Source of the DNA: an uncultured Candidatus Saccharibacteria bacterium
Lineage (GTDB): Bacteria; Patescibacteriota; UBA1384; CAILIB01
Reading direction: 5' to 3'
DNA: 64,000 nucleotides
Assembly (NCBI GenBank): GCA_964593885.1
Contig: CAZQKK010000001.1
Coordinates: 105,929-169,928, forward strand
Positions 19,465-58,787 of this stretch are shown here, piece by piece; the first letter of the stretch is position 1, and each line of letters opens with the position of its first letter. Under the pieces are notes generated by a model. The model did not search any database and was not told the origin of the DNA. It was given only the letters and a program-made list of their open reading frames with translations. A program made the position numbers and the translations under genes.

Positions 19465-19552
19465 GGAGAGATCGCATAGTGGTCTAGTGCGCACGCTTGG
19501 AAAGCGTGTGTGTCGCAAGGCACCGAGGGTTCGAATCCCTCTCTCTCCGCCA
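19465..19552 (+). tRNA. tRNA-Ser (anticodon GGA), 88 nt with long variable arm and encoded CCA
   Basis: Acceptor GGAGAGA/TCTCTCC, anticodon stem CACGC/GCGTG with loop TTGGAAA, T-arm GAGGG-TTCGAAT-CCCTC, discriminator G + CCA. Confidence 0.85.
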
Positions 19553-19748
19553 TAAAAAGTTGTCCAGCCTGTAAGGTTGGGCAATTTTTTATTCTTATGA
19601 CTAGAAGGGATTCGAGTACCTACTAGAAAACATCACATGCTGGGAGCATGTGATTAGAACGAATCCCTCTCCTTGGCTCAGATAAATATGAACCTTTGAT
19701 TCAAACCTAAAAACCTGAGAGAATGCTGAGGAAAACTAACACACCCGT

Positions 19749-20474
19749 ATGCCATCAGTAAAAAAACTTGGACGCTACATACTCAATAAAGTTGATGAAC
19801 GTAAAATAAAGCAGCATCCCCATGCGGCTTCCGATGCGCGATCAATGAAACCTCTAGCTCGCTGGGTCCAGCAGTACACCGATATTAAGCCTAAAACTGT
19901 TGCTGAGATCGGCGCAAACTACGCTCAAGATGCTGAAGGTCTTCGCCACTACTTTAACCTCGATCCAAAAGATATTTGGGTATTTGAAGCTCACCCTGAC
20001 ATCTATCGCGAAATAACAAAAACTTACGACTTCAACGCTTTTCAGGTTGCCGTATTTAATACGAGAAAAGAACGTGTCTTCCATATTGTCGATATCGGAG
20101 CAACAAAGAATACCGGCACTTCATCGCTGTATAACCACAGCTACTCAAAAGAGACAAGCCGTGAGATCACGGTGCCTTGCATTCGAATGGATGACTTTAT
20201 GAAAGAGCATGCCATTGAGAGCTTTGATTTCCTCAAACTCGACGTAGAAGGCTGCAACTACGAGGTTCTTGAGGGCTTCGGAAAGCGCCTCTCAGACGTA
20301 AAGGTTCTCCACATTGAGTCTGAGCACAAGCCAATTTGGGAAGGTCAGAAGCTCTACGCTGACATTGAGAAGATTCTCACCGATAACGGTTTCGAGCTTG
20401 TACTCTTCGAGCGTCACTTTTCTCAGTCTGATTCACTCTGGGTGCAGAAAGAATTCCTTAAGAATGATTTCTAG
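19749..20474 (+). CDS. FkbM-family SAM-dependent methyltransferase
   Basis: VAEIGANYAQDA glycine-rich SAM motif and FLKLDVEGCNYEVLEGF motif typical of the FkbM family. Lower GC than its surroundings. Confidence 0.6.
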   Translation: MPSVKKLGRYILNKVDERKIKQHPHAASDARSMKPLARWVQQYTDIKPKTVAEIGANYAQDAEGLRHYFNLDPKDIWVFEAHPDIYREITKTYDFNAFQVAVFNTRKERVFHIVDIGATKNTGTSSLYNHSYSKETSREITVPCIRMDDFMKEHAIESFDFLKLDVEGCNYEVLEGFGKRLSDVKVLHIESEHKPIWEGQKLYADIEKILTDNGFELVLFERHFSQSDSLWVQKEFLKNDF

Positions 20475-22477: not shown

Positions 22478-24352
22478 CTATTTCACCTTAAATATCCTCC
22501 ACCCTCGTGTCTCGCCAATGAGTTCAAAGTACTTTTCAAAAGCACCCTCAACATAGCCAACATCGGTGTCTTCGTTTGGACCGAGTACCGCATGGGTAAT
22601 CCCATAGCGTGAGATGTACTGGGGGGTTGCCTTACTCCCACTCCAAGTGGCACTTGCTGCTGCCAACCGTGGTCCTGCCTCTATCCCGTAAGACCACAGC
22701 CACCCTGGGTAACCAACGAGGAGATCCCTACCCGCCACCATAGTTACTGGGTGGTTGTGCCTATCAGAGGTGAGCACCACTGCATCCGGGGGCACTAGCT
22801 CACGCACCAAATTTCCTGCTTCCTGATCGGTAGCTGAAAGGAACATGTTCTGTTCGTTCACCTCTCGTACCAAGGTAATGAGTCCGCTTGAGGTGAGGAG
22901 GAGTACTGCAACGCAAGCTACAAGAGCAAAGCGAGGCTGCTTCAGCCACTTTGCAAAGAGGTACGCCACAGGAAGCATGGCAAAAAAGTAGGCGTACGTG
23001 AGAAGTTTCATGTTATCCCAAGCGTACGGCTGGAAAGCGTAGAGGTTGCAAGCGATAAAGATGGCTACTCCGGTAACGATACTTGGAACCAGCCAACTCT
23101 TCCCAACCTTATCCTTCAGAGCAACCCACACCCCAATCGGAATGAGCACCAGGGCAGCGCCTAGGTTTCGTAGCCAGAATGTCACCACCAGCTCATCTGA
23201 ACCTGTCATCCACCCCAGTTGCTGGTAGACAAAGCTTGCATCGTAGCTGGTGCGAAGCTGCCAGAGGAGCTGTGGGACAGCCAGGCAGACGCCAAGTACC
23301 AGTGCTAGCACAAAAGGTACTATTGGCTGCTTCTTCACCACCATCCAGATAATGAGGCAGAAGCTGAAAAGCGAAACCACCATGAAGGTGTGCACGTGGA
23401 TGAATGGGAGCCCCCCATACAGCAGCCCGAGAACCACCCAGCGGTACTTCTGGTGGCGCTTCTCCTCGGCAAGCCAGACGAGAACTATCGTTAAGAAAAC
23501 GAGGAAACCGGCAAGGTACGTCCGCTGAGGTAAGAGGTGAGAAGTTACTAGGTTTGCAAAAGGCAAGCCCCCCTCTGGAATCATCGTCCAATCAGTATCC
23601 ATTGCAGCGGCATACCCCTTCTCAAGCCACTCTTTAGCGAAGAAGTACCATCCGGCCGCAGATCCTGAGGCAAGGATGAGGAGAGTGTGCACGTAGGCTG
23701 CACGCATGCTCCCAAGTAACCTCCAGGTAACCGCAACGCTCAACCTCACCACCGCCAGCAACGAGAGAAAGGTGGGTAGCATGAAAGCTAGTGGCCAGCT
23801 GCCCCCTAACCTAAAGATAATGCCGCTCGCAAAATCGGTGAGGAATGGGTAGGAGAGGTTGCTCCCTGAAAAAATGGGGAGGGTAAGGTCTACATTTGGT
23901 TGGTAGGCAAAGTGAGCAGCGAGGGTTTGGTGGAGTGCTAAGTCTGCCCAAGTGTAACCAACGCTCAACCAGTTACCAGATGCATCAGTTTGGAGAAAGT
24001 GGCTCACCGTCGTACTAAAGGTAAGGACAACCAGTACCACCCAGAAAAGCTGGTAGGTAAGCCGTAGCCAGAAGCCCTTTGGCTGTGGTTCTGGTAAGGT
24101 TTCAGGCTTTCCTTTTACCCAGAGTATCGCTCCACCAACCAAGAGGAGGATGGCGAGTGAGACAGGTAAACCAACACCATAGCCAAGGAGAGAAGCTGAA
24201 AGGAACGTCACCCACATTGCCGTGGCAAACCCAAGCACCCAGGCAACTCCAAGCTTCTCGCTCCACGTTAGCTTAAGCTTAATGAGACTGAGCACACCAA
24301 AACCCGCCAACCACCAAACTCCAACAACCAGCAGTGAGATGACGAGCTGCAT
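22478..24352 (-). CDS. Large polytopic membrane protein (624 aa), GT-C-fold glycosyltransferase-like (ArnT/PMT-like) by architecture
   Basis: More than 12 predicted TM helices and a C-terminal soluble domain. No single diagnostic motif could be verified. Confidence 0.45.
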   Translation of the reverse strand: MQLVISLLVVGVWWLAGFGVLSLIKLKLTWSEKLGVAWVLGFATAMWVTFLSASLLGYGVGLPVSLAILLLVGGAILWVKGKPETLPEPQPKGFWLRLTYQLFWVVLVVLTFSTTVSHFLQTDASGNWLSVGYTWADLALHQTLAAHFAYQPNVDLTLPIFSGSNLSYPFLTDFASGIIFRLGGSWPLAFMLPTFLSLLAVVRLSVAVTWRLLGSMRAAYVHTLLILASGSAAGWYFFAKEWLEKGYAAAMDTDWTMIPEGGLPFANLVTSHLLPQRTYLAGFLVFLTIVLVWLAEEKRHQKYRWVVLGLLYGGLPFIHVHTFMVVSLFSFCLIIWMVVKKQPIVPFVLALVLGVCLAVPQLLWQLRTSYDASFVYQQLGWMTGSDELVVTFWLRNLGAALVLIPIGVWVALKDKVGKSWLVPSIVTGVAIFIACNLYAFQPYAWDNMKLLTYAYFFAMLPVAYLFAKWLKQPRFALVACVAVLLLTSSGLITLVREVNEQNMFLSATDQEAGNLVRELVPPDAVVLTSDRHNHPVTMVAGRDLLVGYPGWLWSYGIEAGPRLAAASATWSGSKATPQYISRYGITHAVLGPNEDTDVGYVEGAFEKYFELIGETRGWRIFKVK

Positions 24353-28475: not shown

Positions 28476-29684
28476 TTAGTATTCTTCTTCCCAGTGCTGC
28501 ACTTCGATTACACTCGGCGTACTACTCAAATTAAAGACAGAGTTGATTATCGTCGTATTAATATTCACCGCAAAGGTTGCTCCAGTGGTTATCGCCATGT
28601 TGTTTGGACAGACAAGACCTCCGTTGATAGTAACGTTCGGGACACTCGTCATCGCCACGTTACCACCACCGAAGAATACCCCGTTAATAATCCACCTCCC
28701 TCCATTGAGTGCTGTGTTTCCTCCAACAAGGATGCCACTCTCGTTATTTCCCGGATTTAACACGTTGAAAGTCAACCTACTCGCAATGGCGTTACTCACC
28801 GAAAAGTTACTGGCAAAAACTAGGATACCGGTTAGGTTAACCACTGTGTTATTTGGTACTGAGGTAAGGCTGAAGGCGCTGCTCACGTAGGTAATCGGAC
28901 CAGGTAGGGTTATCGTTCCACCGGTTTGAATGAGGTTCCTGAAAGCCGTCCCTGTGTAGGTTGCATTTGCGCTGGTCTGGTAGTAGGCAAAGTCTACCGT
29001 TGGGATGGTAAGCGAACCAGGCGGTGGCGGAACGTTGTTTGCCTGAGTTCCTCCCGAAGTAACCGTTCCACCTGTCCTTGTGTAGTTCCCTACCGCAAGG
29101 AACTTTCCCGTACCAAGGTTCATATTGGCATTTGTCAGTGTCATGTTCCCCGTTGTATAGAGATCGCTGTTTGGTATTTGTGCCGTGCTGCTTCCGTTAC
29201 TAAAACTCATGTTGAAACCACTCACAATTGAAGCGTTCCCAAGGGTGCCAGTTGTGGGAGCTGAGTAGACCTCAGCCGTAACCTTTCGTTTTGCAGTGAA
29301 AGCCCCATTATCTGCCGTAGCATCAACCGTAATGGTTCCGTATCCTGCTCCTTTTACAGCGTTTGAAAGCATTGTTACGGTAAAACCCTGTCCTGCCTGA
29401 GGAGTGTTTGTTGCGGTGTAGGTGGTATTGAGAGCTCCAGCCCTCAGGGCATCAGCCAAGGAAGTATCTGTTTTGAGCTTATTCACCGCATGCACAATTC
29501 CTGCGTCAGCAGCGTAGTACGCGGTAATACCTTCACGTTGTGAGCGCGAGATCTTCGCCTCAAGTGCCGAAATACTCACCAAGGCTCCAACTCCAAACAA
29601 ACCAACCCCCAAGAGAATGAGAATGGTTGCCAGAGCGTAGCCGGATTTCTGCCTTCGTCCCATCAGAGTTAGCATGCTTTTCAC
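28476..29684 (-). CDS. PilX-like minor pilin/pilus-tip assembly protein (402 aa)
   Basis: N-terminal class III signal-like RRQKSG/YALATILILLGVGLFG, then a T/N/G-rich beta-rich region. It is the last gene of the pilin cluster. Confidence 0.5.
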   Translation of the reverse strand: MKSMLTLMGRRQKSGYALATILILLGVGLFGVGALVSISALEAKISRSQREGITAYYAADAGIVHAVNKLKTDTSLADALRAGALNTTYTATNTPQAGQGFTVTMLSNAVKGAGYGTITVDATADNGAFTAKRKVTAEVYSAPTTGTLGNASIVSGFNMSFSNGSSTAQIPNSDLYTTGNMTLTNANMNLGTGKFLAVGNYTRTGGTVTSGGTQANNVPPPPGSLTIPTVDFAYYQTSANATYTGTAFRNLIQTGGTITLPGPITYVSSAFSLTSVPNNTVVNLTGILVFASNFSVSNAIASRLTFNVLNPGNNESGILVGGNTALNGGRWIINGVFFGGGNVAMTSVPNVTINGGLVCPNNMAITTGATFAVNINTTIINSVFNLSSTPSVIEVQHWEEEY

Positions 29685-32912: not shown

Positions 32913-32983
32913 CGTTTAATAAAAAACAACGCCTCCGCAGTAACACTTTTGTTACGAGGACAGCGTTGTTTTTTTATTAAACG
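32913..32983. terminator. Large bidirectional hairpin (20 bp AT-rich arms, 30 nt loop) at the 3' end of the L,D-transpeptidase gene
   Basis: CGTTTAATAAAAAACAACGC...GCGTTGTTTTTTTATTAAACG. The loop contains CTCCGCAG, complementary to CTGCGGAG in the upstream repeats. Confidence 0.5.
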
Positions 32984-32990
32984 GTGAGTT

Positions 32991-34430
32991 TTAGTGGATA
33001 ACCACTTTCGTTCCAATATCAGACCAAGCGTACACTTCTTCTGCGTCACCAATACCAAACCTTACACACCCATGTGATGCTCGTCTACCAAGGCTTCGTG
33101 CACCCTCTTTAATCCCGTTTGGTCGCTCTGGAAGTTCGTGGAGACCGTACTGCCCCGCTGGGAGTATGTCACCGTTGTCTGCAGTGCCAAGGAGGTTCTG
33201 CCAGTACGGCATGTAGAGTTTGTAGGTTCGGGAAAATGCCCGCGGGTGCTTGCTCCCAACGTAGAAGGTGCCAATTGGGGTGGGACGAGACCATGTTCCT
33301 GAGGAAATTTTGTACACTTTCTCTAGCGTGTTGCCATTAATCCGGTATGCTTTCTGTTCACTAATATTTACCTCAACGTACTTTCCTTCAAACCTCCCTA
33401 GGGTGTAGCTTCCTGCGGTAACAACTTCCTTTGGCTTTAGGGTGAGGGCAACTGTCTTGCTTGCCGGTGCCTTTACGGCTTCCCTACTCGCACTCTCTTC
33501 TGAATCACTTAGAGCTGCAACAACAAGCTTGAGACTCTTCGAAACATCAATTAGTTTACCTGCTTTTGAGGTGAGGTAGGTTGAAACAGCAGACTCGTTG
33601 GTATCTAGTGAGAGTTCGCCGGCATCACCCTGAACGATGGTGTACCAGCTGAGAATTTCTTTGCGGGTTGGAACGAGAGCTACACCTTCAGCACCTAGGT
33701 TGAGTTTGAGGTTACCGAGGTTATCAAGCTGGGTAGCAAGTGGCTGAATCTTTGCCCTCGTAACATCTGATGATTGCTGGCTGGTTTCTGCTCGCAGGTA
33801 GGTTGCCACATCGCCATCAAGTGCTGTTGGGATAACTGCAGCAAGTTTTACCGCCATTGCATCAGTGTCTACCACCTGTCCAGGTTTTTCATCTGAAACA
33901 ACAACCTTATCACCATCAATTTTGAGGGTAGCTGCTACCGGTTGCACCAGCTTTGGGAGCACCTTGGTTGAGATAAACTCATCTGCTTTTGCCGGATCAA
34001 CACTGTAGACTAGTGGTACGTTTTTCCCGTTGAAGAAGGTTGGGATGGCAGAGGTTGCCCAATCAAGGAGGTTAGTCTGGTGCCCGGTTACCCACCCAGT
34101 TAGCTGAGCGTTCTCCTCCTCCATTTCAAGTCCAAGCTCTGCTGCAGTTCCACTCACCTCAATGTCTGGGTACTGACCAGTGGTGACATCTCTATCCTTA
34201 CTAATATCTGGGATGGTAACCACCACTGTGTGAGAGGCGTAGCTTGCAACACGCTCAGCAACCTTCTGCTTTCCCTGAGCCTCGGTGAGGCCCCCAACCT
34301 GGACGCCTGCTACGCGCACCCCTGGGTAGAACCTATCACGGTAGTAGGCAGCAGCAACACCAAGACTTGCCGCTGAGAGAGAGACGAATACGAGCAACGT
34401 GATGAGGGTGAGTTTGAGGAAGCGAGGCAT
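32991..34430 (-). CDS. L,D-transpeptidase (YkuD domain) with N-terminal membrane anchor and VanW/YoaR-like region
   Basis: C-terminal catalytic motif SHGCVRF and YkuD-like GTFYVGSKHP...YKLYMPYWQNLLG. Confidence 0.75.
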   Translation of the reverse strand: MPRFLKLTLITLLVFVSLSAASLGVAAAYYRDRFYPGVRVAGVQVGGLTEAQGKQKVAERVASYASHTVVVTIPDISKDRDVTTGQYPDIEVSGTAAELGLEMEEENAQLTGWVTGHQTNLLDWATSAIPTFFNGKNVPLVYSVDPAKADEFISTKVLPKLVQPVAATLKIDGDKVVVSDEKPGQVVDTDAMAVKLAAVIPTALDGDVATYLRAETSQQSSDVTRAKIQPLATQLDNLGNLKLNLGAEGVALVPTRKEILSWYTIVQGDAGELSLDTNESAVSTYLTSKAGKLIDVSKSLKLVVAALSDSEESASREAVKAPASKTVALTLKPKEVVTAGSYTLGRFEGKYVEVNISEQKAYRINGNTLEKVYKISSGTWSRPTPIGTFYVGSKHPRAFSRTYKLYMPYWQNLLGTADNGDILPAGQYGLHELPERPNGIKEGARSLGRRASHGCVRFGIGDAEEVYAWSDIGTKVVIH

Positions 34431-34438
34431 CTGAGAAG

Positions 34439-34984
34439 TTAGACCAAGTTAGCTTCATCTATAGCAGCAAACACGTGTCTCACCAACTGTTTGGGATCTT
34501 CGTGCATGATTACCCTCCCCATTCCTCGGTGTGCCATCTTGAGGATAACCGGGATTTCATCAATGGTGCCCCCGCTGTGGAGGAGGATGCCAATGATCAT
34601 GTGGCGCTCGAAAGCGTGGGTGAACTCGTGCAGGGTTCCCACCCTCCCACTAATCTCAATCACCGCATCGGCCATATCAATGAGGGTGATGTCCCTCCCG
34701 GCGTAGTCTTGGCCGGTAAAGAACATGGTGTCATGGTACTGCACTGGAAGGCGGTACTTCTTGGTGTGCTCTAGGAGGCTGTTAGCAGGCGAAAAGCCTA
34801 TCACCTCCCCCCTCACAGATTTTGCCCCTCGTGCCGAGGCAAGTGGAATACCCGTGGTTGCGCCGGTAAGGACAATACCTCCGTGGATGGCAATCTGTTT
34901 GCCAACCTCGTGGGCGAGAGCTTCGCCTTGCTCACCAGCCTCACCTCCTGCAGCACCTGAGATGGCAATCTTTGGGTCAAACAT
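34439..34984 (-). CDS. SLOG/LOG-like Rossmann-fold protein (TIGR00725/YgdH-like)
   Basis: 181 aa with GGIVLTGATTGIPLASARGA...GFSP...GRVGTLHEF, resembling LOG-family/TIGR00725 glycine-rich loops. High GC, unlike the upstream two genes. Confidence 0.55.
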   Translation of the reverse strand: MFDPKIAISGAAGGEAGEQGEALAHEVGKQIAIHGGIVLTGATTGIPLASARGAKSVRGEVIGFSPANSLLEHTKKYRLPVQYHDTMFFTGQDYAGRDITLIDMADAVIEISGRVGTLHEFTHAFERHMIIGILLHSGGTIDEIPVILKMAHRGMGRVIMHEDPKQLVRHVFAAIDEANLV

Positions 34985-36146
34985 TAGATGCTCGTTTAAA
35001 TGAAGTTACTACGTAGTGGATTGCCTGAATCAAGCCAGGAATGTAACGCTTAAACCTTTCATCCTCGGCTTCATCAGCTATCTCTGCTGCGTATGAGCTC
35101 AACTTATCTAGGGTGATCTGATCGATGGTATCCAACAGGTAGTGAATTGAAACCGGATTGAGGATGAGGTCAATTCTTGGGTACGACCTTAAGAACCTGT
35201 AGAGGACTTCGGTAAAGTTGTTGATATCAGTCTGCTTGAGTGCAAGGTTGTAGAGCGCCTGTGAAACCTGGTTACTTGAGATATTCTCAAGTGAAAAGCA
35301 GCTCTCAACGTCTGCATACAGCTTTTCATTGGCAGCAGCTGGCATCTCCCCAGAATTCACAAGACGAAGCGCTTCAAGTCTATCAACAAGCCGCTTACCG
35401 TACGTTATCCTCAGCTGTTCAAGGAGTAAGACTTCTGTAGGAAGTTCACCATTATTTGCAGTGATAACACCAAGTGTTGATACCACCCTGAACAGGAACA
35501 TCTGAAGCTCAAACATTCTCTCAGGCATTAGAAAATCCTGAATAGTTTCATCAGGGACAAAACTGAGGTCCTTGAGGAAAGCTTGTATTTCGGATTGCTC
35601 AACTTGGCTAATTCCCTGATCCAACTGCATCCTTTCACCTACAAGCTCCAAATGTCTCTGCGCATCTTTCTGCATTGAACGAACCTGTTCGATTTGCATG
35701 TTTTGCGACTCAATCGAAGAAAGGAGCACCTTCTCTTGGAGAAATTCTGTAGCACCAACTAACACCGTTAAGCTATGCCAGAAGTTAACCTGTCTATTTG
35801 CCCATTCAGAAATATCAGGTGGGAATGCTGGAAGATCTTCCGGGATCAGTTTTTCTTCGATGAGTTTTTTTCGTACTGAACCAGCACTGTAGAGTGCGAA
35901 GAGTGAAAGGTGGTAGAGAAAGGTACCAGCATCAATGTGAAAAAGTGCTCCAAGGTTATTTATTTTGAGGTACGACTCAATTTCAGCTGAGAAAACTGGG
36001 AGGAAGTCATTTACAACCCGAAACACAATCGCTCGCTCGTTTGGCTCTAGCGCTTTCACATACTCAATAGTATCTTCATCACTCGGTGAAGTTCTCAACC
36101 AACTCAGTATTTCTTGGCTCAGCTGTGCGAGTTCTTGATCATTCAT
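34977..36146 (-). CDS. Hypothetical cytoplasmic helical protein (389 aa), AT-rich codon usage, translationally coupled on both sides
   Basis: No TM segments; acidic, leucine-rich. Start overlaps the upstream 1286 aa gene's stop by 4 nt, and its stop overlaps the SLOG gene's start. Confidence 0.5.
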   Translation of the reverse strand: MNDQELAQLSQEILSWLRTSPSDEDTIEYVKALEPNERAIVFRVVNDFLPVFSAEIESYLKINNLGALFHIDAGTFLYHLSLFALYSAGSVRKKLIEEKLIPEDLPAFPPDISEWANRQVNFWHSLTVLVGATEFLQEKVLLSSIESQNMQIEQVRSMQKDAQRHLELVGERMQLDQGISQVEQSEIQAFLKDLSFVPDETIQDFLMPERMFELQMFLFRVVSTLGVITANNGELPTEVLLLEQLRITYGKRLVDRLEALRLVNSGEMPAAANEKLYADVESCFSLENISSNQVSQALYNLALKQTDINNFTEVLYRFLRSYPRIDLILNPVSIHYLLDTIDQITLDKLSSYAAEIADEAEDERFKRYIPGLIQAIHYVVTSFKRASNV

Positions 36147-39100
36147 GGGTTACCTCCGCCATTTTGAGCGTCTGATTGCTCGGTAACCTTAAACGCATTT
36201 GTTGGGTAATCACCAATATTATTATCAATTTTCGTACCCATACTATTGTCTCCACGATAATTTTCAGTGACAACCGTATTCCAAGCATCACGCGACGTAA
36301 ACTTTGCATCAATAATTTTTTGCAACCCCGCATCAGGACCTATAACTTTCATAAGTTGCACAGCAGCACTCTTTGTTGATTTATAGTTTGATCCTCCATC
36401 TTTAATCATTTTATGAAGGCTAAGTATCCTAGCAACGCGCTTCTGATGTTCTTTTAGTGTCTTAACGTCAGTGCTTGATGGATCTAAGACACCCTTACCA
36501 TCAATAATATCTCGGTAGACAGCGCCATTCTCAACCATTTTATCGCTAAAGGCCTCATTCACGATATCATCACGCCCAATGTATGCCTTCACGTACTGAT
36601 CTGTGCGCTTAAGGGCATTCTTGTGCTCCTCTGCCATCAAACGAATTTTGGATTCTTTCTCAGGATCGTTACCAGCCATCGCAGATATCGCTGCTTCTCC
36701 TTCAGAAGCTGCCTTAGCTGCTTTTATGTACGTATCATCAACAAGAATACGCCTGTCATAGTGTTCTTTCTGATCTTTTTCATCGTCATTTGCAATTTCT
36801 TGTCGTGCACTTGCTTGGTTGACTGTCACTTGCCTGCGTTCCGATGCCATTAGGGCTGCACCAGTCTTCATCTGCCCATCTGATGTCTTAATACCTGAGT
36901 AATTCGCAGCACGTGCTCTCGCTAACTCAGCTTTAGCAATTTGGGTTGCACTCTGCGTGTCTTTCACAAGTGCGTACTCCTTGTTGTACTTCTTCCCTTG
37001 CTTACTTTTGAAGTCTTTAGCTAGCTCTTCTTCTGCAAACGCGGTAACACCTTCTTGGACTGATTTATCAAGATCATGCTCTAGGTGGCGCATGATGTTC
37101 TTTTTCTGGCGGGCCGCATTAACCCTATTTGCCCTCTTGTTATTGATCTTCTTCATTTCCTTATCCAACTCATCTTCAATCTCCTCGATTTTTTTCTCGT
37201 ACTGAAGCTGTGTAAGCTTGTTATCTGCAAAGTCTTTCTGAGCCTTAGCCCGTGCCTCATTTGCGTGTTCTTCAGCATGTTCAGTTGCCTCAGCCTGCTT
37301 CTTTGCAGATCTAAGATTAATGCCGCTTTCAGAGGCCTTCAACTTTCCTTGGCGTTCTTCAACGTAATTTTTACCCCAGCGCTTCAGATCACCGTAGCGC
37401 GAGAGATTTTGAGCAGTCATGTACCTGTCTTTCAAATCTGCTTTCACTGCCTTGCCGGCGGCTCCTCCTGTGGCACCCCATGCCTGTTTCCCCATACCCT
37501 GCCACTTGTCCATGACCATTTTCGCTTCTCCTGAGAGTGAACCTACTGACGACTTAATTGCTGTGACCATACAGACCATCCCAAAGAGGTAGCCAAGGAT
37601 ACTTCCAAAGGCACTTTGTGCAGTTGAAGATGTTGCAGTGAAAAATTGGAAGGCAAGCCACAACCAGAAGCTTGCAATGAGAGGCATCAACAGCCAGTTG
37701 AAGAAGTTTTTTGACCACTGCTTCCAGATAAAACCAATTGGTTTTACAGCTGCTGAGAAGAACGCAAGTGCGGATAGAGGTGTTAGGAAGTAGAAGACAA
37801 TAGACCTAATCACAAAGAGAAACGCAAGAATAAATACGATTACTGCTGCTGCAATAATAAATAAGTTTAGCGTTGCCTGCTTCATTACCAGACCAGATTT
37901 CACCAAACCGGTTGCCTGATCATAGAAGAATGTAACCTTATCCGCTCCACCAATATTACTAAGGCTCTGGGCAAGTTGGTTGATATCATACCCTCCAAGT
38001 GCAAAGAATTCTGTTACATAGCTTGTCGCCTCCATCACACCTCTGATCACGAAAATACTTGCATTGGCAAGTATCAATCCAATCACTAGTTGAGGGAACA
38101 TCTTGCTAATCTGGTATGTTGATACCTGAATCTGCAAGATGTTTGAAAGTGCAATAAAAATAAAGAAGAGAAGGAGAATAAAGTTTACTAGCGTTAAAAT
38201 GAGCGAGTGAGTCTTGCTAATTATTTTTCCTACATCATTTGTTGTTGATCCGATGATACTTTCTGGCGGTGTTCGTATTTCAACAGGAACAAGAAAATCA
38301 AACATACTATCACTTGATTCATCCGTTGAGGGTACTCTTCCACTAAACCCAGCTGTTTGAGCAAGCATATTGAGCGATGACCTAAGGAGGTATTCTGAAA
38401 ATTCTTGAACAGCAATACTCACTACACACAGAATCTGCATAAACCCATTAGCCGTTAAAAAACCTGGCGACTGCTCATTTCCACATCTGTCAGCAGATTG
38501 CAACCTCCCGGAAAGAGCATTCATTTTTTTTGCAACTTCGCCATTTAAAAACTGTGCAACATTCTTACCGACACCGATAACTTGATTAACTGTATTAACT
38601 TCGGCGGTTGCAAACATCTGATCCTTACTGATCTCTGGGTCAAGTACTTCACTTGCAGCAGTTCTAATAACACCATTACCCCCACTTGAGAGCAGACTTT
38701 CCCGTATTGGGTTTGCTTGACCTTTTGTTGTCGCAAGGAGCATCGCCGATTCAGCCATCATCCAATACGCCTGTGATAGTGGTTTCAAATTGGTTGAGTA
38801 CGTATTGTAAACGTTCGCTCCACTCAACTGAATTTCATTTTTTGCAAATGAAACGAGAGCACTTGTTCCGGCACCAAGAACAGCAAAAGTGCCAAATGCT
38901 TGAAGAGCAATTGGTGCAGCAATAGATAGCGCCAACCAAATTCCACTTAAGCTAGCCCCTCCTGTAAAGACTGCAAGCAGTACTGACCCAATAATGATTA
39001 TTCCCGCTGCCACCGCACCTGCAATCAATCCCGCTTGAGCTGCATCACGGGCTGCATCTACCATCATTTCATAACTAATCATTCTACTCCCAAGGTACAC

Positions 39101-40003
39101 CTTCGACCCAAGCTTCTCGTAAAGCGGGTTTACAGGAGTACCATCTTCTTTTACTACTTCCGGCCCAGGAGTAAGTAGAAACTTCGCAGCAAGAACAACT
39201 GCTTGAAATGCAGCATTGTAGAGCATTTGAGAAGCAGCAAAGGACTCCTCCATGCATTTTTTTGCTTCTTCTTTTGTGAAGCCTTCAGTTGCAAGATCAA
39301 AGGTTGACCAGTCATAACTTGCTTTTCCTTTGCTAGCACCTAAGAGCTGATCATACTTAGCCTGTATCGGATATTTTTTTCCCCCTTCAACTGGCACTCT
39401 TACCGTTACTTCTGTTTCCTCACGATCATGTTTTAACGTGATTGTTTTATTCTCGTACTCACACGGAACTGGATCAACATTCCCAGAAGTACCTATCTGC
39501 TTTTTTAGGTTTTCATTGATAGTGTAAGGTATAGAATTTGCGTTTGCTGCAGCTTGATTTATCTCAATGCACTGATTTGAGGAATTTGGAAAATCAGGCG
39601 TTGCGTTGGCATACGTTGGGTTATTATTCCTCTTACAAAAGAGAATCTTATCCTCAAGTACCCAGCTCAATTTTGAGACGTAAAGCTTTGGATCTGTATT
39701 CTGTACGCCAGCATCTTTAAAGGCTTGATCGCCGTAGTCTTTTAGCGGACCTGTCCCCCGATAATTATTACGAAATGCAATGCATAATGGAGTATTTGCT
39801 TCTTCGCTTCTGGGATTTTCAGTACCTACCTCACAAAACGAGGTAGCGCTAGCTTTTGACCACGCCCACTCATTTGAAGCAGCCTTCGCACGCTGCACAA
39901 AGCCATCTAAATCTGTAAGGTTGAGGATAAGAAAATTGGAAACAAAAAATGCGAGTAGAAGTACCCCTAGCTTCTTTGCGTATTTCCTCATATGTACCAT
40001 CAT
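36143..40003 (-). CDS. Giant polytopic membrane protein (1286 aa): signal-anchor, Cys-containing extracytoplasmic domain, about 10 TM helices in three clusters, about 450 aa K/E/A-rich coiled-coil tail. VirB6/TrbL-like topology, but no homology established
   Basis: Uninterrupted 3.86 kb ORF at about 40% GC. Hydrophobic clusters at residues about 330-390, 590-640 and 690-800. C-terminal tail of heptad-like charged repeats. Confidence 0.6.
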   Translation of the reverse strand: MMVHMRKYAKKLGVLLLAFFVSNFLILNLTDLDGFVQRAKAASNEWAWSKASATSFCEVGTENPRSEEANTPLCIAFRNNYRGTGPLKDYGDQAFKDAGVQNTDPKLYVSKLSWVLEDKILFCKRNNNPTYANATPDFPNSSNQCIEINQAAANANSIPYTINENLKKQIGTSGNVDPVPCEYENKTITLKHDREETEVTVRVPVEGGKKYPIQAKYDQLLGASKGKASYDWSTFDLATEGFTKEEAKKCMEESFAASQMLYNAAFQAVVLAAKFLLTPGPEVVKEDGTPVNPLYEKLGSKVYLGSRMISYEMMVDAARDAAQAGLIAGAVAAGIIIIGSVLLAVFTGGASLSGIWLALSIAAPIALQAFGTFAVLGAGTSALVSFAKNEIQLSGANVYNTYSTNLKPLSQAYWMMAESAMLLATTKGQANPIRESLLSSGGNGVIRTAASEVLDPEISKDQMFATAEVNTVNQVIGVGKNVAQFLNGEVAKKMNALSGRLQSADRCGNEQSPGFLTANGFMQILCVVSIAVQEFSEYLLRSSLNMLAQTAGFSGRVPSTDESSDSMFDFLVPVEIRTPPESIIGSTTNDVGKIISKTHSLILTLVNFILLLFFIFIALSNILQIQVSTYQISKMFPQLVIGLILANASIFVIRGVMEATSYVTEFFALGGYDINQLAQSLSNIGGADKVTFFYDQATGLVKSGLVMKQATLNLFIIAAAVIVFILAFLFVIRSIVFYFLTPLSALAFFSAAVKPIGFIWKQWSKNFFNWLLMPLIASFWLWLAFQFFTATSSTAQSAFGSILGYLFGMVCMVTAIKSSVGSLSGEAKMVMDKWQGMGKQAWGATGGAAGKAVKADLKDRYMTAQNLSRYGDLKRWGKNYVEERQGKLKASESGINLRSAKKQAEATEHAEEHANEARAKAQKDFADNKLTQLQYEKKIEEIEDELDKEMKKINNKRANRVNAARQKKNIMRHLEHDLDKSVQEGVTAFAEEELAKDFKSKQGKKYNKEYALVKDTQSATQIAKAELARARAANYSGIKTSDGQMKTGAALMASERRQVTVNQASARQEIANDDEKDQKEHYDRRILVDDTYIKAAKAASEGEAAISAMAGNDPEKESKIRLMAEEHKNALKRTDQYVKAYIGRDDIVNEAFSDKMVENGAVYRDIIDGKGVLDPSSTDVKTLKEHQKRVARILSLHKMIKDGGSNYKSTKSAAVQLMKVIGPDAGLQKIIDAKFTSRDAWNTVVTENYRGDNSMGTKIDNNIGDYPTNAFKVTEQSDAQNGGGNP

Positions 40004-40036: not shown

Positions 40037-40630
40037 CTACGATCCAATCCACTTCGGCGTCAGGCTATCCCGTTTCACACGTAGTTCAGCTGCTTTTTCT
40101 CGGTACGAAGCATCAAACTCAGCTAGATTGTCGTAGGTAAGCGCTAGGTAGTGGAGGGCTTCGGGGTAGTTGGCATCAAGCGAGAGAGCCCTCTCAAATG
40201 GATACCGAGCGTAGACGTACTCACCCGCCAGGAAAAAGGAGATGCCTGAGGCAACTGCTTCTTTTGGTGTTGCAAAGTTTTCGGTGGAGGCATCAATTTT
40301 GGCCACAATATCTTCTCTGTTGTGGGAAACCAGGTAGTTTCGAAGCTCTGCAATGTCTGTTTCGCCAGACTTTGCTAGCTTAAGCTGGCTTTCAGCATCA
40401 CGGTTTTCTGGGTTGAGGTTGAGAGCGCGTGTAAAGGTAGCTGAGGCATCGCTAAACTTGAGAGCTGCAAGCTGCTCGGATCCCTTCACCGTGTACCTGG
40501 TACTCATCACGTGCTGCACAGGAGAGACTGCCTGCCAGAGCACGAGTGCTAGGAGCGATAACCCAAGGAAAATGGTGGCGCAGGATCGCTTTCCGGAAAA
40601 CCTGACAGCTCCCGCTACTTGCCTGGCCAC
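40037..40630 (-). CDS. Membrane-anchored TPR-repeat protein
   Basis: N-terminal TM CATIFLGLSLLALVLW followed by TPR-like helical repeats (ALNLNPENRDAESQLKLA, ALSLDANYPEALHYLALTY). Confidence 0.55.
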   Translation of the reverse strand: MARQVAGAVRFSGKRSCATIFLGLSLLALVLWQAVSPVQHVMSTRYTVKGSEQLAALKFSDASATFTRALNLNPENRDAESQLKLAKSGETDIAELRNYLVSHNREDIVAKIDASTENFATPKEAVASGISFFLAGEYVYARYPFERALSLDANYPEALHYLALTYDNLAEFDASYREKAAELRVKRDSLTPKWIGS

Positions 40631-42840
40631 GGCGCTACAATCAGCATGGTTTCTCGCTCTGGGAGGCGCTGCCAGATGGCCTCAGTAACAAAAGGCATGA
40701 ATGGGTGGAGCATCTTGAGGCTTGATTCCAGGACATGGAAGAGGATGGAGCAGGTTGTGGCATCTACTTGTCCATTGTCATCCTTCTGAGACTTTGCCGC
40801 CTCAACGTAGACGTCGGCAAACTGGTGCCAGGTGAACTCGTGGAGGGCCTGGAGTGCTTGGGCAAACCGGTAGTTGTCCAAGTGCTCAGTAGCTTCGGAA
40901 GTTGCTTCGGCAAGTTTCGTGAGGATGTCACGGTCGGCATCGGTGAGGGTGGCGGTAGAGCCTTCGCCCAGGTCAACTGACACCATGTTGTTAGCATCCT
41001 CTGAGAAACTCACCACCGGCAGCTCGCTCACAGCTCGCTCTCCCAACTGCATAAGGACAAATCGGCTAATGTTCCACAGTTTGTTGGCAAAATTCCTCCC
41101 CCCAATGATCTTTTCCTCAGGCATAGGGATGTCAGAGCCAGCCGAAGATCCTACCAGCAAGCCAAACCTCACGGCGTCAGCGCCGTACTTAGCAACCAAA
41201 TCTACCGGGGAAACTACGTTCCCTTTGCTCTTTGACATCTTCTTCCCCTGCTTGTCCAAAACCATGCCGTGGAAGTAGACGTGCTTGAAGGGAACATCGC
41301 CACGGAGGTAGATGCCCATCATCAGCATGCGGGTTACCCAGGAGAAAATGAGGTCGCGACCCGTTTCCATAACTGTCGTTGGGTAGAAGTCATCAAGCCA
41401 GTCATTTCCCATAGCTTCCAGAACCGCCACCGGCCACTGGGAAGATGAGAACCAGGTGTCAAAGGTGTCTAGATCTTTGGCAATGTCTGGATTCTCTGGC
41501 ATTGCGGCATTGATAGGAATACCCCACCAAATCTGGCGGCTAATGTTCCAATCCCTGAGGTTTCGTAGCCAGTCAAGCTGAATTTTCTTGAAGCTCTCAG
41601 GGTGGTACTCTACCTTGCCAGCCTCAATAGCTTTGATAACCGGTTCTACGAGAGGTTCAACTTTCACGTACCACTGCGGCATGACGAGGGGCTCAATGGG
41701 TTGCATGGACTTGTAGCAGAGGGCAACCGAGTGCTTGTAGGTGGTGTCCACCTTTTCTAAGAGCCCTAGTTCTTCTAGGCGAGCCGCAATCAACTTTCTA
41801 GCTTCGGCAGCTTTTATCCCAGCAAACTCTCCTGCGATAGGAAGCAGTTTTCCGTCTAGCCCAATAATTGGAATGATTGGAAGGTTGTGTCGCTGGGCAA
41901 TCTCAAAGTCTATCGAGTCATGCGCCGGGGTGATGGTCATGGCACCGGTGCCAAACTCAGGCTTGATAGCGTCATCGGCAATCACGTGCATCTGTACCAT
42001 TTCACCAGTCGCAATCTGTACCTCAAAACTCTGGCCAATATACTGCTTGTACCTCTCGTCTTCTGGGTGCACCACAATGTGCTTGTCCCCAAACTTGGTT
42101 TCAGGCCTTACCGTGGCGATGGTGATTGGGCCGTACTTGATGTAGTAGAGGGGGTCCTGCCGCTCTTCGTGGACCAGCTCAATATCTGAGTAGGCTGTCC
42201 GGTACTTTACCGAGTAGTTTACAATCCTCTCACCCCTATAAATGAGCCCTTCCTCGTACATACTCCTGAAAGTTGTGTAGACACGATCAAGTACCGCATC
42301 GTCGAGGGTGAAGCGGTTGGCCTTCCAGTCAACGCTGGTTCCCATCATCTTAATCTGAGCCTCAATGTTCCCCTTGTTGCTCAGGGTGAATTCCATTGCC
42401 TCCTTGTAGAACTGCTCGCGTGTCATCTGGAAACGTGAGCGGCCCTCTTTTTCCAGGTGCTTTTCAAACACCACTTGCGTCTCGAGGCCAGCGTGGTCGG
42501 TGCCGGGAATCATTACCGTACGAAACCCCTTCATTCGGTGGTACCTCACCATGATGTCTTCAAGGGTGAAGGTGAGCGCATGCCCCATGTGCAGATTGCC
42601 GTTGGCGTTGGCGGGAGGCGTTACCAGGGAGAAATGGGTGTCTTTGGTATCTTCTGAGGTTTTGGCTCTCGGCGAAAAGGCGCCCATGGTTTCCCAGGCA
42701 GTGTAGGTAGGTGTTTCGTGCTCCCCGGCAACGTAGGCTTTGGGGAAGGTTTCTTCGGTGAGTTGCATACCTGGAAGTGTAGCTGATTTCTCACCTGTTT
42801 GCGAGTGATTACCAGAGGCAACCACTAACAAAACCTGCAC
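40615..42840 (-). CDS. valS: Valyl-tRNA synthetase (short form, 741 aa)
   Basis: PPANANGNLHMGHA HIGH-region, GTDHAGLETQ, KMSKSKGNVV. ValRS-type motifs. No C-terminal coiled-coil extension. Confidence 0.8.
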   Translation of the reverse strand: MQVLLVVASGNHSQTGEKSATLPGMQLTEETFPKAYVAGEHETPTYTAWETMGAFSPRAKTSEDTKDTHFSLVTPPANANGNLHMGHALTFTLEDIMVRYHRMKGFRTVMIPGTDHAGLETQVVFEKHLEKEGRSRFQMTREQFYKEAMEFTLSNKGNIEAQIKMMGTSVDWKANRFTLDDAVLDRVYTTFRSMYEEGLIYRGERIVNYSVKYRTAYSDIELVHEERQDPLYYIKYGPITIATVRPETKFGDKHIVVHPEDERYKQYIGQSFEVQIATGEMVQMHVIADDAIKPEFGTGAMTITPAHDSIDFEIAQRHNLPIIPIIGLDGKLLPIAGEFAGIKAAEARKLIAARLEELGLLEKVDTTYKHSVALCYKSMQPIEPLVMPQWYVKVEPLVEPVIKAIEAGKVEYHPESFKKIQLDWLRNLRDWNISRQIWWGIPINAAMPENPDIAKDLDTFDTWFSSSQWPVAVLEAMGNDWLDDFYPTTVMETGRDLIFSWVTRMLMMGIYLRGDVPFKHVYFHGMVLDKQGKKMSKSKGNVVSPVDLVAKYGADAVRFGLLVGSSAGSDIPMPEEKIIGGRNFANKLWNISRFVLMQLGERAVSELPVVSFSEDANNMVSVDLGEGSTATLTDADRDILTKLAEATSEATEHLDNYRFAQALQALHEFTWHQFADVYVEAAKSQKDDNGQVDATTCSILFHVLESSLKMLHPFMPFVTEAIWQRLPERETMLIVAPWPGK

Positions 42841-48481: not shown

Positions 48482-49369
48482 CTAGCCGCGGGTGTGCTTG
48501 CGGTGGGTGAGCAGCTGGCGCATCAGGAGCACAAACCTCTCTGGAAAAGCTTTCACCGGTGCCGCAGCGGTACTGGCGGCCGTGTCTTGGTGCACCTGTA
48601 CCCACCAGCAGCCGTGGTGACTTGGAGCACCTGCCATGCCGGTGTGGAAGGTGATTACAAACTTCTCACTTGGGAACTCCTCAGAGAGCACTCCCATGAG
48701 GAGGCTCATGGTGTAGGCAAGCTCTTCTCGCTCAGCCCTGCTCAACTGGTCAATGCTGGTTGCATGGCTAACGGGAAGGTACCACACCTCGTGTGGATTG
48801 AGAGGAGCCGATGGAACGTAGAGGAAACCGTGTTCACCTGCGTGCACCTGGAAGAGCCTCTCACCTTTCTGTAGCTTGTGGAGCAGTTCTTCGGTGAGGT
48901 GGTGCTCAGTCCCTGCAACTGGGTGGCTGGTTGCCACAAGGTCTCCCACACGTTGGAGCTCTGCACCCAGAGTCCCAAGGGCACTGGTGTGAAGCTTGAG
49001 GGTCACGAAGTGGAGGTGTGGGTTTGCATGGAGCTGCTTAAACCTCTCGTGGAAGAGGGTAAGCCAGTGCTCCCAGGTTGCGGGTGTCCAATGGGCAAAA
49101 CCTTGTTCGCCCTGGTAGCAGAGGAGCTCGTACTCACCCACCGGAGCTTCGGCAGAGTAGAGAAGATCGCCATCGTGGCTCTTGTGTTTTGCGGGTGGAT
49201 CCAGCAAGAAAGGACTACGAGGGTGGGGTAGCGCAAAGAAGTCTGGGTGGTGCACCTTGCCGTGATCTAGGCGAGAAGCCGCAGAAACCACCAGCTGGCT
49301 TGGCAGCTGTTCGCCCAGGAGAACCCACTGCTTAAAGACAGGATTGAAACGGAAGGTGTACATGTACAA
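48482..49369 (-). CDS. Galactose-1-phosphate uridylyltransferase-like (HIT-superfamily) protein
   Basis: C-terminal APSHHGCWWVQVH resembles the GalT HPHGQ active-site region. Tentative. Confidence 0.4.
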   Translation of the reverse strand: MYMYTFRFNPVFKQWVLLGEQLPSQLVVSAASRLDHGKVHHPDFFALPHPRSPFLLDPPAKHKSHDGDLLYSAEAPVGEYELLCYQGEQGFAHWTPATWEHWLTLFHERFKQLHANPHLHFVTLKLHTSALGTLGAELQRVGDLVATSHPVAGTEHHLTEELLHKLQKGERLFQVHAGEHGFLYVPSAPLNPHEVWYLPVSHATSIDQLSRAEREELAYTMSLLMGVLSEEFPSEKFVITFHTGMAGAPSHHGCWWVQVHQDTAASTAAAPVKAFPERFVLLMRQLLTHRKHTRG

Positions 49370-55381: not shown

Positions 55382-55792
55382 ATGCCTCTCAAGACGGTTA
55401 TCTCGGGGAGCTTCCACCGTCACCCTGAAAAACTCTGGAGCATCTACCAAGAGCTCACCCTTGCCGGCTGCCAGGTACTATCACCATTCACACTTTCCTT
55501 CCAATCTCCTGATGATGATTTTGTGGTGGGCAAGGGAGAAAGCTGGCTCACCCCTCTAGAAATAGAGAAGCACCACCTCACCGCCATTTCCCATGCAGAC
55601 TTTGTCTGGCTCCACGTACCAGATGGGTACATTGGCAAGAGCACAGCGCTAGAGATTGGTTACGCGGTAGCAAAGGGTATCCCGCTCTTTTCGCACACAC
55701 TACCCACCGAGGAACCTTTCAGGTCTTTTGTTAGTACGTACACATCAGTATATTGTGCCCTACAAGAGAACAACCTCATCACAAACACCTAG
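55382..55792 (+). CDS. Nucleoside 2-deoxyribosyltransferase-like protein
   Basis: FVWLHVPDGYIGKSTALEIGYAVAKGIPLF resembles the NDT-family C-terminal catalytic Glu region. Start 2 bp after the Nudix gene stop. Confidence 0.5.
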   Translation: MPLKTVISGSFHRHPEKLWSIYQELTLAGCQVLSPFTLSFQSPDDDFVVGKGESWLTPLEIEKHHLTAISHADFVWLHVPDGYIGKSTALEIGYAVAKGIPLFSHTLPTEEPFRSFVSTYTSVYCALQENNLITNT

Positions 55793-58077: not shown

Positions 58078-58787
58078 TAGTGTGAGTTAACAGTAACACC
58101 GTTTACCTCATCCAGTATCGCCGTCACCACTAACCGTTTATCCGAGCTCCATAGTGGGGTGCATGTATAGAGGGTGAGAATGGGTCTGCTTGTTTGAGCT
58201 TCTATTCCGGTCTCGTTTGAACTTACAACTTCTGTAGAAGTAACACGATAGACATACACATCCTTTCCCCACGTAACGGTAAGCTTTTCACCAACCGCAA
58301 CTTTATCGAGGTAGTAGAAAGTATTTGGACCAGTTGAGTACTTGTAACGGTGAGCAACAATAACGGTATTACCTCCTTGTGGTGGAGTACTGGTGTTTGG
58401 TCTGCGCCAAAGGCCAGTATCCAGCGTTTCCTCATCCGGTCCCTCAAGAATTTCGGACTCAACACCAATTGTTGGTATAGAGAGAAGCTGGTTACTCCAT
58501 GTAGCTGACTCACTCGAGATTTGTTGCTCTGAACTATGCATTGCTTTAACCACAAATGGCGAGCCCCCCTGGGACCGGTACTGCCATTGGTAGACCCAGT
58601 TTGGGATGAAAGGGGCAAAAGCAAAGTAACCCGCTGCACTTGTCACCACAACCGTAACTATCGTATTCCTGATTATAGAGAATCGTTTTCTGTTATTTCT
58701 GGGCGAGAATTCTAAAGGCACATCCGCGCGTAGCTGTGCACGCTTCGGTGCTGCATGTATGCCGTCAAAATATCGCCTTTGAGCCAT
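58077..58787 (-). CDS. Sortase (class E-like, recognising LAxTG)
   Basis: TLYTCTP (TLxTC) active-site Cys motif, VIVAHR His motif, N-terminal membrane anchor. Stop overlaps the substrate gene's start (ATGA). Confidence 0.75.
   Translation of the reverse strand: MAQRRYFDGIHAAPKRAQLRADVPLEFSPRNNRKRFSIIRNTIVTVVVTSAAGYFAFAPFIPNWVYQWQYRSQGGSPFVVKAMHSSEQQISSESATWSNQLLSIPTIGVESEILEGPDEETLDTGLWRRPNTSTPPQGGNTVIVAHRYKYSTGPNTFYYLDKVAVGEKLTVTWGKDVYVYRVTSTEVVSSNETGIEAQTSRPILTLYTCTPLWSSDKRLVVTAILDEVNGVTVNSH

Follow-up and report, generated by a model that had tools for sequence, protein, structure and literature searches.

The window analyzed here is a 64,000-nucleotide (nt) stretch of contig CAZQKK010000001.1, from an uncultured Candidatus Saccharibacteria bacterium (assembly GCA_964593885.1). 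It contains an operon of six tightly packed minus-strand genes: valS, a gene for a membrane-anchored TPR protein, a gene for a polytopic membrane protein of 1286 amino acids (aa), a gene for a 389 aa soluble protein, a SLOG gene, and an L,D-transpeptidase (Ldt) gene. Our subject is the third and fourth of these, which we call the large gene (36143..40003, minus strand) and the partner gene (34977..36146, minus strand). An earlier reading of the sequence (the original prediction) held that these two genes are a foreign, AT-rich module that was inserted into the operon and co-opted. Its account of the operon and of the coordinates agrees with the list of open reading frames (ORFs), and its identification of valS, TPR, SLOG, and Ldt agrees with Pfam and NCBIfam. 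The pair, however, is ancestral at this position, and it is the allele that looks foreign.

The genes fit closely together. The large gene begins 33 nt after the TPR gene, its end overlaps the start of the partner gene by 4 nt (ATGA), and the partner gene overlaps the SLOG gene by 8 nt. All three junctions can be read from the sequence and are as originally described. A GGAGG ribosome-binding site for the partner lies within the 3' end of the large gene (36153..36157, minus strand), 8 nt 5' of the partner gene's start codon (ATG). On its 5' side the partner is translationally coupled to the large gene, and on its 3' side to the SLOG gene.

The large protein and its partner

By hydropathy, the large protein consists of an N-terminal signal anchor, a hydrophilic region of ~560 aa, a hydrophobic core (residues 595–849), and a charged tail of 437 aa. 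The hydrophilic region, or ectodomain (type 1; residues ~31–594, 38222..39913, minus strand), has six cysteines within its first 300 residues, a hydrophobic hairpin of two helices at residues 327–387, and an invariant pair of cysteines (Cys507 and Cys526). Its GC content at third codon positions (GC3) is 0.31–0.35. The transmembrane core (residues ~595–849, 37457..38221, minus strand) has hydrophobic segments at 601–619, 639–657, 714–753, 767–789, and 798–820, with a variable loop of 56 aa (658–713) between the second and the third. This is the arrangement by which TrbL/VirB6 proteins are recognized: at least five hydrophobic helices, with a large loop after the second. The invariant residues of the core include Q626, Y630, K634, R733, W760, W763, and K765. 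The core ends in a juxtamembrane motif, GEAKMVMDKWQGMGKQAWGATGGAA (residues 825–849, 37457..37531, minus strand), which is present in every orthologue with the consensus GEAKMVMDKWQGMGKxAWGxTGG. This junction motif is also the 5' breakpoint of a variable cassette, described below.

The large protein has just one distant match in the databases, P0003 (E = 1.4e-6; L and P numbers are our labels for related loci and proteins). P0003 is encoded at locus L004 in a Patescibacterial type IV secretion system (T4SS) operon, along with four T4SS pilins, PrgI, a TraC-like protein, VirB4, an M23 peptidase, and a lysozyme. P0003 passes the Pfam threshold for TrbL (27.9 bits versus a cut-off of 25.9), and the core of the large protein aligns to this TrbL region. 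A pairwise BLASTP comparison aligns P0003 over the core helices (E = 7e-9), and a profile of the cores of eight orthologues matches it in hhalign with a probability of 98.4% (E = 8e-15 across 186 columns). Also, the orthologue from L008 carries a precomputed match to PF19590 (TrbL_3). Judging from these alignments, the core is homologous to VirB6 of Patescibacterial T4SS operons. Because this VirB6-like core is joined to a large hydrophilic tail, the large protein can be classed by its sequence as an “extended VirB6”, which is a recognized class whose extra domains have unknown function (PMC12857230). The original prediction had stated that neither protein could be assigned. This no longer holds for the core of the large protein, but it does for the partner, which has no match in Pfam, NCBIfam, PADLOC, PHROGs, or the PDB. 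Over its whole length, the large protein likewise belongs to no Pfam, NCBIfam, PADLOC, or PHROGs family. Sequence searches of the PDB with the whole large protein, the core profile, a partner profile, and P0003 gave nothing useful.

The tail of the large protein (type A; residues 850–1286, 36146..37456, minus strand) is basic (isoelectric point (pI) 9.1, net charge +8), helix-rich, and free of cysteine. It is 56% identical to the tail from L003 and has no BLASTP match to the tails from L001, L011, or L005. Tail lengths range from 403 to 633 aa in the nine orthologues that we measured, and the 1504 aa protein from L014 implies a tail of ~770 aa. All of the tails have a pI of 8.4–9.7 and are essentially free of cysteine. 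We infer that the tail is cytoplasmic from the positive-inside rule, given a core of ~5 helices, and from the absence of cysteine. Several orthologues show exactly five core membrane spans by hydropathy, and the model of VirB6 from Agrobacterium tumefaciens has ~5 core helices as well.

An exhaustive HMMER search for the type A tail in 1.84 billion representative proteins found just five matches: the tail itself, one fragment, and three proteins of ~345 aa. This search did not tie the tail to any other architecture. The three short proteins (P0128, P0129, and P0130; 340–349 aa) have in common with the distal part of the tail a subdomain of ~110 aa (residues ~1125–1245, E ~5e-5), with the pattern D-I-[IV]-x-x-A-F ... 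L-K-x-x-Q-K-x-x-A-R-[IL]-x-x-L-H. They belong to no Pfam family and could be stand-alone genes or fragments.

The type A partner is acidic (pI 4.7, net charge −23), and it has no transmembrane segment. It is 58% identical to the partner from L003 and has no match to those from L001 or L011. All of the partners are soluble proteins of 360–403 aa with a pI of 4.4–5.0. The opposite charges of the two proteins, along with the covariation described below, suggest that the partner binds the tail.

The locus in related bacteria

The large protein and the partner have three matches each in a word-indexed collection of 5.8 billion proteins. Because they have so few relatives, we used the SLOG gene as the anchor to fetch related gene neighborhoods. 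The order valS-(TPR)-[1196–1504 aa]-[360–403 aa]-SLOG-(Ldt), where parentheses mark genes that are sometimes absent, was present in 11 of the 12 SLOG-anchored loci. The loci with the module are L001/L002, L003, L005, L006, L007, L008, L010, L011/L012, L014, and the locus of P0050, and they extend down to 59% identity in SLOG; only L009, at 54%, lacks it. The source labels of these loci are Patescibacteria and soil, and NCBI assemblies that carry the locus include GCA_965609665.1 and GCA_043751595.1. Since all but one of the 12 related loci share this gene order, the pair is an ancestral part of the operon and was not inserted into it. The SLOG gene is directly downstream of the partner in all but one of the loci, and downstream of the operon the relatives have trxB and a minor-pilin operon.

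A genomic island would be absent from this site in relatives and would have signs of mobility at its borders. We saw no empty site in the relatives that keep the valS/SLOG context. We also found no flanking direct repeats, integrase, or adjacent tRNA at the borders of the block, and no notable tandem or flanking repeats. The predicted insertion and co-option of a foreign module are contradicted by the synteny, with no signature of mobility to set against it. We suggest caution in calling islands from composition: this “island” is an old resident whose alleles move.

The one locus in which the coupling of partner to SLOG is broken is that of a more distant relative, L008: two genes on the opposite strand (L008 7333–9929), whose products are a protein of 750 aa and a DUF5663 protein of 115 aa, lie between the two. 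We also scanned for peptide patterns from the conserved core and from SLOG, and found no relative in the GTDB representative genomes or in the JGI metagenome contigs; a second metagenome scan returned the L007 contig only, and a scan of viral contigs gave no match. Either the lineage is thinly represented in the GTDB and JGI sets or the peptide-pattern scan missed it, yet NCBI assemblies do carry the locus.

As for base composition, the block from 34977 to 40003 (5,027 bp) is 43.1% GC, versus 52.4% in the remainder of the window. No other stretch of that length in the window is as low in GC; the next lowest, at ~55.7 kb, is 49.0% GC. The block is AT-rich, as originally noted, but the contrast given (40% versus 55–58%) was overstated by about 6 points. 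GC3 is 0.38 in the large gene and 0.44 in the partner gene, versus 0.54–0.66 in their neighbors. We also computed z scores for GC3 at synonymous sites (GC3s), with the expectation taken from each amino acid's synonymous choice in the other 56 ORFs of the window. These are −15.5 for the large gene and −6.3 for the partner gene. The changes in individual codons that had been named in the original prediction are real and significant. For instance, in the large and partner genes, the share of AAT is 0.58 and 0.70 (0.27 in the background), of GAT 0.81 and 0.77 (0.54), and of AAA 0.50 and 0.51 (0.38). The compositional edges had been placed exactly on gene edges. This is so for the 3' edge, which is at the partner/SLOG junction, but the 5' edge is ~120–160 nt inside the large gene, whose first 40 codons are still backbone-like.

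The codon usage of the module is a better fit to the background of an L005-like genome (GC3 of 0.45) than to the window's own background (0.58), while valS, as a control, fits the window's own. The low GC3 is not found in every allele: the large gene of L011 has a normal GC3 (0.53), with no deficit, and the partner gene of L001 has a host-like GC3 (0.60). The composition suggests that the AT-rich block arose by allelic replacement, via homologous recombination with a lower-GC relative. An imported allele of this kind would explain the composition, the saturated synonymous sites (described next), and the sharp edges together.

To follow identity along the locus, we compared it to L001, the closest relative, whose flanking proteins are 78–98% identical to the window's (mostly 85–98%). 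The flanks have 83–90% nt identity, with a synonymous divergence (dS) of ~0.8; most flanking genes have dS of ~0.6–1.1. From ~39,840, in the ectodomain, identity is just 50–77%, and in the transmembrane core (38,195–37,446) it is ~80–85%. Right after the junction motif it drops from 0.80 to ~0.5. The tail and the partner (37,445 to ~34,985) are at ~50% with gaps, which is to say not alignable, and from the SLOG start onward identity is back at 87%. The tail and the whole partner gene form an exchangeable cassette (34985..37456, minus strand), with 80–90% identity on both sides. Its breakpoints are the juxtamembrane motif (5') and the start codon of SLOG (3').

Synonymous sites give a similar picture. 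The proportion of synonymous differences (pS) versus L001 is 0.41–0.57 in the flanking genes, except for the minor pilins and h209 (0.57–0.73). Within the large gene it is 0.34 in codons 1–40 and 0.73–0.86 in codons 41–866. The ectodomain has pS of 0.77–0.86. The core is 95% identical at the protein level, with a proportion of nonsynonymous differences (pN) of 0.055, yet its pS is 0.73. Because synonymous sites are saturated across codons 41–866, even in the core with its low pN, the window's allele is, on this measure, far older than the genomic backbone that carries it. Thus the idea of horizontal acquisition fails as the insertion of an island, but it stands in another form: the allele is foreign to the backbone, as seen in its saturated synonymous sites, its tail and partner type, and its donor-like codons.

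The ectodomain and core vary together as one unit. The type 1 ectodomain is found in the window and L001 only, with 68% identity between them, and has no BLASTP similarity to those of L011, L003, L005, or L006, which share ectodomain-plus-core type 2; the type 1 core is 47–50% identical to type 2 cores. L007 is a more distant member of type 2, and L008 and L010 each have a type of their own. Tail and partner make up the other unit. Type A is found in the window and L003 and, distantly, in L006 and L007; type B is found in L001, L011, and L005; and L008 and L010 are again each unique. The similarity matrices for tail and partner are congruent, with at least four types, and tail type and partner type always switch together.

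The two tail types have no detectable homology (hhalign probability of 0.3% for type A versus type B). In contrast, the N-terminal halves of the two partner types are homologous (hhalign probability of 94%, E = 1.2e-7), while their C-terminal halves are not. Within a type, it is the C-terminal half of the partner that is better conserved.

Because all four combinations occur (1A in the window, 1B in L001, 2A in L003, and 2B in L011, with 2B' in L005), the two units reassort. The housekeeping genes group the window with L001 and L011, and L003 with L005, and the matrix of neither unit agrees with this. From these comparisons, the locus is a recombination mosaic around conserved junctions, built of an ectodomain-plus-core unit and a tail-plus-partner unit. 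Homologous allelic replacement at an ancestral locus is suggested as the most economical reading.

Interpretation and rival explanations

We consider it reasonably probable that the locus encodes a resident, lineage-wide pair of a VirB6-like protein and an acidic partner, that it is a mosaic with an imported allele in the window, and that tail and partner are a cognate module for specificity or gating. Under this account, homologous recombination with a lower-GC relative would have replaced the allele and so produced the AT-rich block. The acidic partner would bind the basic tail by electrostatic attraction. The C-terminal half of the partner, which is type-specific, might read the tail type, while its N-terminal half, which is family-wide, might contact something invariant. 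Tail and partner would both be cytoplasmic, and together they would act on the inner side of a membrane conduit of the T4SS type, whose ectodomain would face the host or a neighboring cell. Diversifying selection at the cell-cell interface may keep several types in circulation.

Several observations weigh against parts of this account. The window's protein has no TrbL match at E ≤ 0.1 and falls below the Pfam and NCBIfam thresholds; the TrbL matches are weak, with a best E of 0.0086, and come from just 2 of 8 orthologues. No VirB4, VirD4, or other T4SS gene is present among the 36 scanned ORFs of the window, or within 7–10 kb in any of the relatives with the module. In some orthologues six hydrophobic segments can be counted, which would place the tail outside the cell, so the topology should be read as a prediction, and the evidence that the partner binds the tail consists of covariation and charge. 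The AlphaFold2 model of residues 1–1200 of the large protein, from a three-sequence alignment, has a pLDDT of 33. The model of the partner is all-alpha, but weak (pLDDT of 64), and it gave no informative fold match. Also, the large gene's GC3 is below that of its flanks in several relatives, and all of the genome pairs other than the window and L001 are saturated at synonymous sites, so dN/dS is uninformative for those pairs.

Because several relatives show the same deficit in the large gene, a gene-intrinsic codon bias may contribute to the AT-richness. Taken further, the low GC3 could be due entirely to relaxed codon selection and AT-biased mutation in a weakly expressed, fast-evolving envelope pair that diverged in place without any transfer. 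This would account for the large gene's low GC3 in most relatives, and other surface genes (the sortase substrate, the PilX-like protein, and Ldt) have low GC3 too. We think this has little chance of being the whole explanation. Divergence in place does not fit with a core whose synonymous sites are saturated versus L001 despite a pN of 0.055, when most flanking genes have dS of ~0.6–1.1. Nor does it fit with sharp breakpoints at conserved motifs, with the existence of all four combinations of modules, or with the ordinary GC3 of the L011 allele and of the L001 partner. The opposite view, that a foreign island entered the valS-TPR-SLOG-Ldt operon and was co-opted, would fit the sharply bounded discordance in composition and codon usage. 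We regard it as extremely improbable, given that 11 of the 12 related loci have the pair in this very place, the lack of any empty site, the borders with no repeats, integrase, or tRNA, and a 5' compositional edge that lies within the large gene.

Two other readings concern what the pair does. VirB6 homologues are known to pair with adjacent cognate exclusion factors via cytoplasmic regions, in discrete groups (PMC11493245). In particular, TraG and Eex or TraS, from SXT/R391 integrative and conjugative elements and F-like plasmids, are reported to have cytoplasmic interacting regions, adjacent genes, and several exclusion groups (PMC11493245). Our pair resembles these, in that a VirB6 homologue adjoins a co-varying factor and the types are discrete and reassort. 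The partner might therefore act in trans, in a recipient or sibling cell, by recognizing the tail of an incoming VirB6-like protein of the same type and blocking unproductive engagement of the T4SS among kin. However, the locus is chromosomal and in the core genome, amid housekeeping genes, with no conjugative element, relaxase, or VirB4 nearby. Known exclusion factors such as Eex and TraS are small inner-membrane proteins encoded by conjugative elements, and a few residues determine their specificity; our partner is soluble and 360–403 aa (~385 aa is typical), and whole domains differ between types. Furthermore, the ATGA overlap and the GGAGG site point to stoichiometric co-production, which would suit a complex formed in cis. 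We think that entry exclusion is unlikely, although it is not far-fetched. A polymorphic toxin-immunity system, in which the C-terminal region is a toxin delivered to neighbors and the downstream gene encodes the cognate immunity protein, seems still less likely. As with CdiA-CT/CdiI and Rhs-CT/RhsI, a variable C-terminal region follows a conserved motif, a change in its type is matched by a change in the adjacent gene, and strains exchange these by recombination; also, no homology between the type A and type B tails was detected, and type A is extremely rare in sequence space. But no toxin domain was found in any of the 8 orthologues, and no toxin or delivery domain was found by Pfam, NCBIfam, or PADLOC, nor was there a sequence match in the PDB. 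The tails are long (400–770 aa), helix-rich, and basic, with a predicted location in the cytoplasm. The partner, a large protein, keeps a constant length, and the homology of its N-terminal half across types counts against mutually unrelated immunity proteins. There are no orphan modules or arrays of tails or immunity genes, with SLOG coming directly next in all but one locus.

One of the closest known systems is VirB6/TrbL of the monoderm-type T4SS of Patescibacteria, as exemplified by P0003 (PF04610/PF19590). It belongs to the same phylum, has a homologous polytopic core, and like the large protein has a large extracytoplasmic domain before the core. In contrast to P0003, the large protein is encoded away from any VirB4/pilin/PrgI cluster, between valS and SLOG; it has a basic tail of 400–770 aa and a coupled partner gene; and it is hypervariable, mosaic, and below Pfam thresholds. 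The extended VirB6 proteins of Rickettsiales (VirB6-1 to VirB6-4 in Anaplasma) also combine a VirB6 core with a large hydrophilic C-terminal extension. Among T4SS channel subunits, the Anaplasma paralogues vary most from strain to strain, and it has been proposed that the extensions reach as far as the target cell (PMC3556328). However, the Anaplasma extensions vary by tandem repeats and grow increasingly acidic, whereas here whole, non-repetitive, basic tails are exchanged together with a cognate downstream gene, in a monoderm. The VirB6-like proteins of Gram-positive conjugation (TcpH/PrgH type) are polytopic proteins of monoderms with a sizeable cytoplasmic C-terminal domain, and they are encoded inside conjugation loci. 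These proteins are not known to be hypervariable or to come with a co-varying partner. No known system fits fully: the locus extends the extended-VirB6 kind with a new family of partners. We dropped three other ideas: a defense system (no support from PADLOC), a phage or mobile element (neither PHROGs nor viral contigs nor repeats supported it), and a component of the type IV pilus (the minor-pilin operon lies beyond trxB, and nothing connects the module to it).

More speculatively, and with a low chance of being right, this could be a chromosomal type-switching specificity locus on a VirB6-family channel, used for kin or host discrimination in soil Patescibacteria. The exchangeable ectodomain would then set which cell surface is engaged, and the tail and its cognate partner would determine with whom a conduit for secretion or uptake works productively or is blocked. 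If so, it would be comparable to entry exclusion or to polymorphic toxin-immunity, but unlike either it would belong to an obligate epibiont's core genome, and recombination would maintain its types across species.

The T4SS is among the few machines shown to be essential for the epibiotic growth of Patescibacteria (PMC10633639; PMC12857230). Of 480 Patescibacterial VirB6 homologues, 304 are near virB4; the strays, about a third of the total, were not described further (PMC12102498). The locus gives one of these strays a defined anatomy: a conserved core, with outward and inward ends that are swapped as units, and a new partner family that tracks the inward end. If the tail and partner are a specificity device, then they would provide a sequence-readable marker of interaction types in uncultured epibionts, as well as a lead on the role of the extra domains of extended VirB6 proteins.

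Flanking genes and other features of the window

The first gene of the operon is valS (40615..42840, minus strand; 794 bits to NCBIfam valS). Its start is probably an internal methionine ~24 codons 3' of the listed GTG: relatives align from residue 25 onward, and the listed GTG lies 24 codons upstream (42769–42840). The exact translation of the listed ORF is absent from the protein collection. The internal start would widen the intergenic region between valS and femAB. The TPR protein (40037..40630, minus strand) has weak matches to TPR families in Pfam and evolves quickly, with 88% identity to L001, 67% to L011, and 30–56% to other relatives. Its gene is kept 5' of the module in most relatives and is absent from L010.

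The SLOG protein (34439..34984, minus strand) belongs to SLOG cluster 4 (PF18306, 1e-26; TIGR00725-like) and is highly conserved, at 98% identity to L001, 96% to L011, and 87% to L003. What connects it to the module is that it is consistently found next to it; any functional role there would be conjecture. The last gene of the operon encodes the L,D-transpeptidase (32991..34430, minus strand), with the Pfam domains PG_binding_4 and YkuD. The original prediction proposed to look for recurrence of the neighborhood in related genomes, and there the large membrane protein, partner, and SLOG do recur together, with Ldt sometimes absent: the operons of L007, L008, and the P0050 locus lack it. The Ldt gene has a GC3s z of −4.5 and is a mosaic too. 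The window and L001 versions share 93% identity, but the Ldt of L011 (L011 10557–11999) shares 67% with the window's and 73% with that of L003, while the housekeeping genes of L011 are otherwise 89–97% identical to the window's. Past the Ldt gene is a hairpin with 25 nt arms and runs of A and T alongside (32921..32974), which probably ends the operon as a bidirectional terminator. Scans for promoters and terminators showed no excess.

Beyond trxB, the minor-pilin operon ends with a gene for a PilX-like protein of 402 aa (28476–29684, minus strand). This protein is 78% identical to that of L001, and its pS of 0.73 compares to 0.57–0.65 for the other minor pilins and to 0.41–0.57 for most backbone genes. 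Here, too, a surface gene seems to have had its allele exchanged.

The window has a second patch of low GC3 (55789–58787, minus strand), which includes a sortase gene (58077–58787; Pfam Sortase, 2.6e-25; GC3s z of −5.1) and a gene for a 762 aa protein (z of −9.6). The 762 aa protein has a GTNDAS (SGNH-like) motif, and at its C-terminus it has LAQTG, a hydrophobic segment, and RRQR. It is probably the substrate of the adjoining sortase. The codon usage of its gene, the one of the two that was compared, is also closer to that of lower-GC relatives.

At 19465–20474, a tRNA-Ser(GGA) is directly followed by a gene for an FkbM-type methyltransferase, with GC3 of 0.48 and z of −3.7, which may be a small acquired gene beside the tRNA. 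Finally, several sizeable ORFs of the window belong to no Pfam family: 11435–13108 (557 aa), 13110–13943 (277 aa), 22478–24352 (624 aa), and 48482–49369 (295 aa). The first of these, the 557 aa ORF, has an unusually high GC content at second codon positions (0.56).

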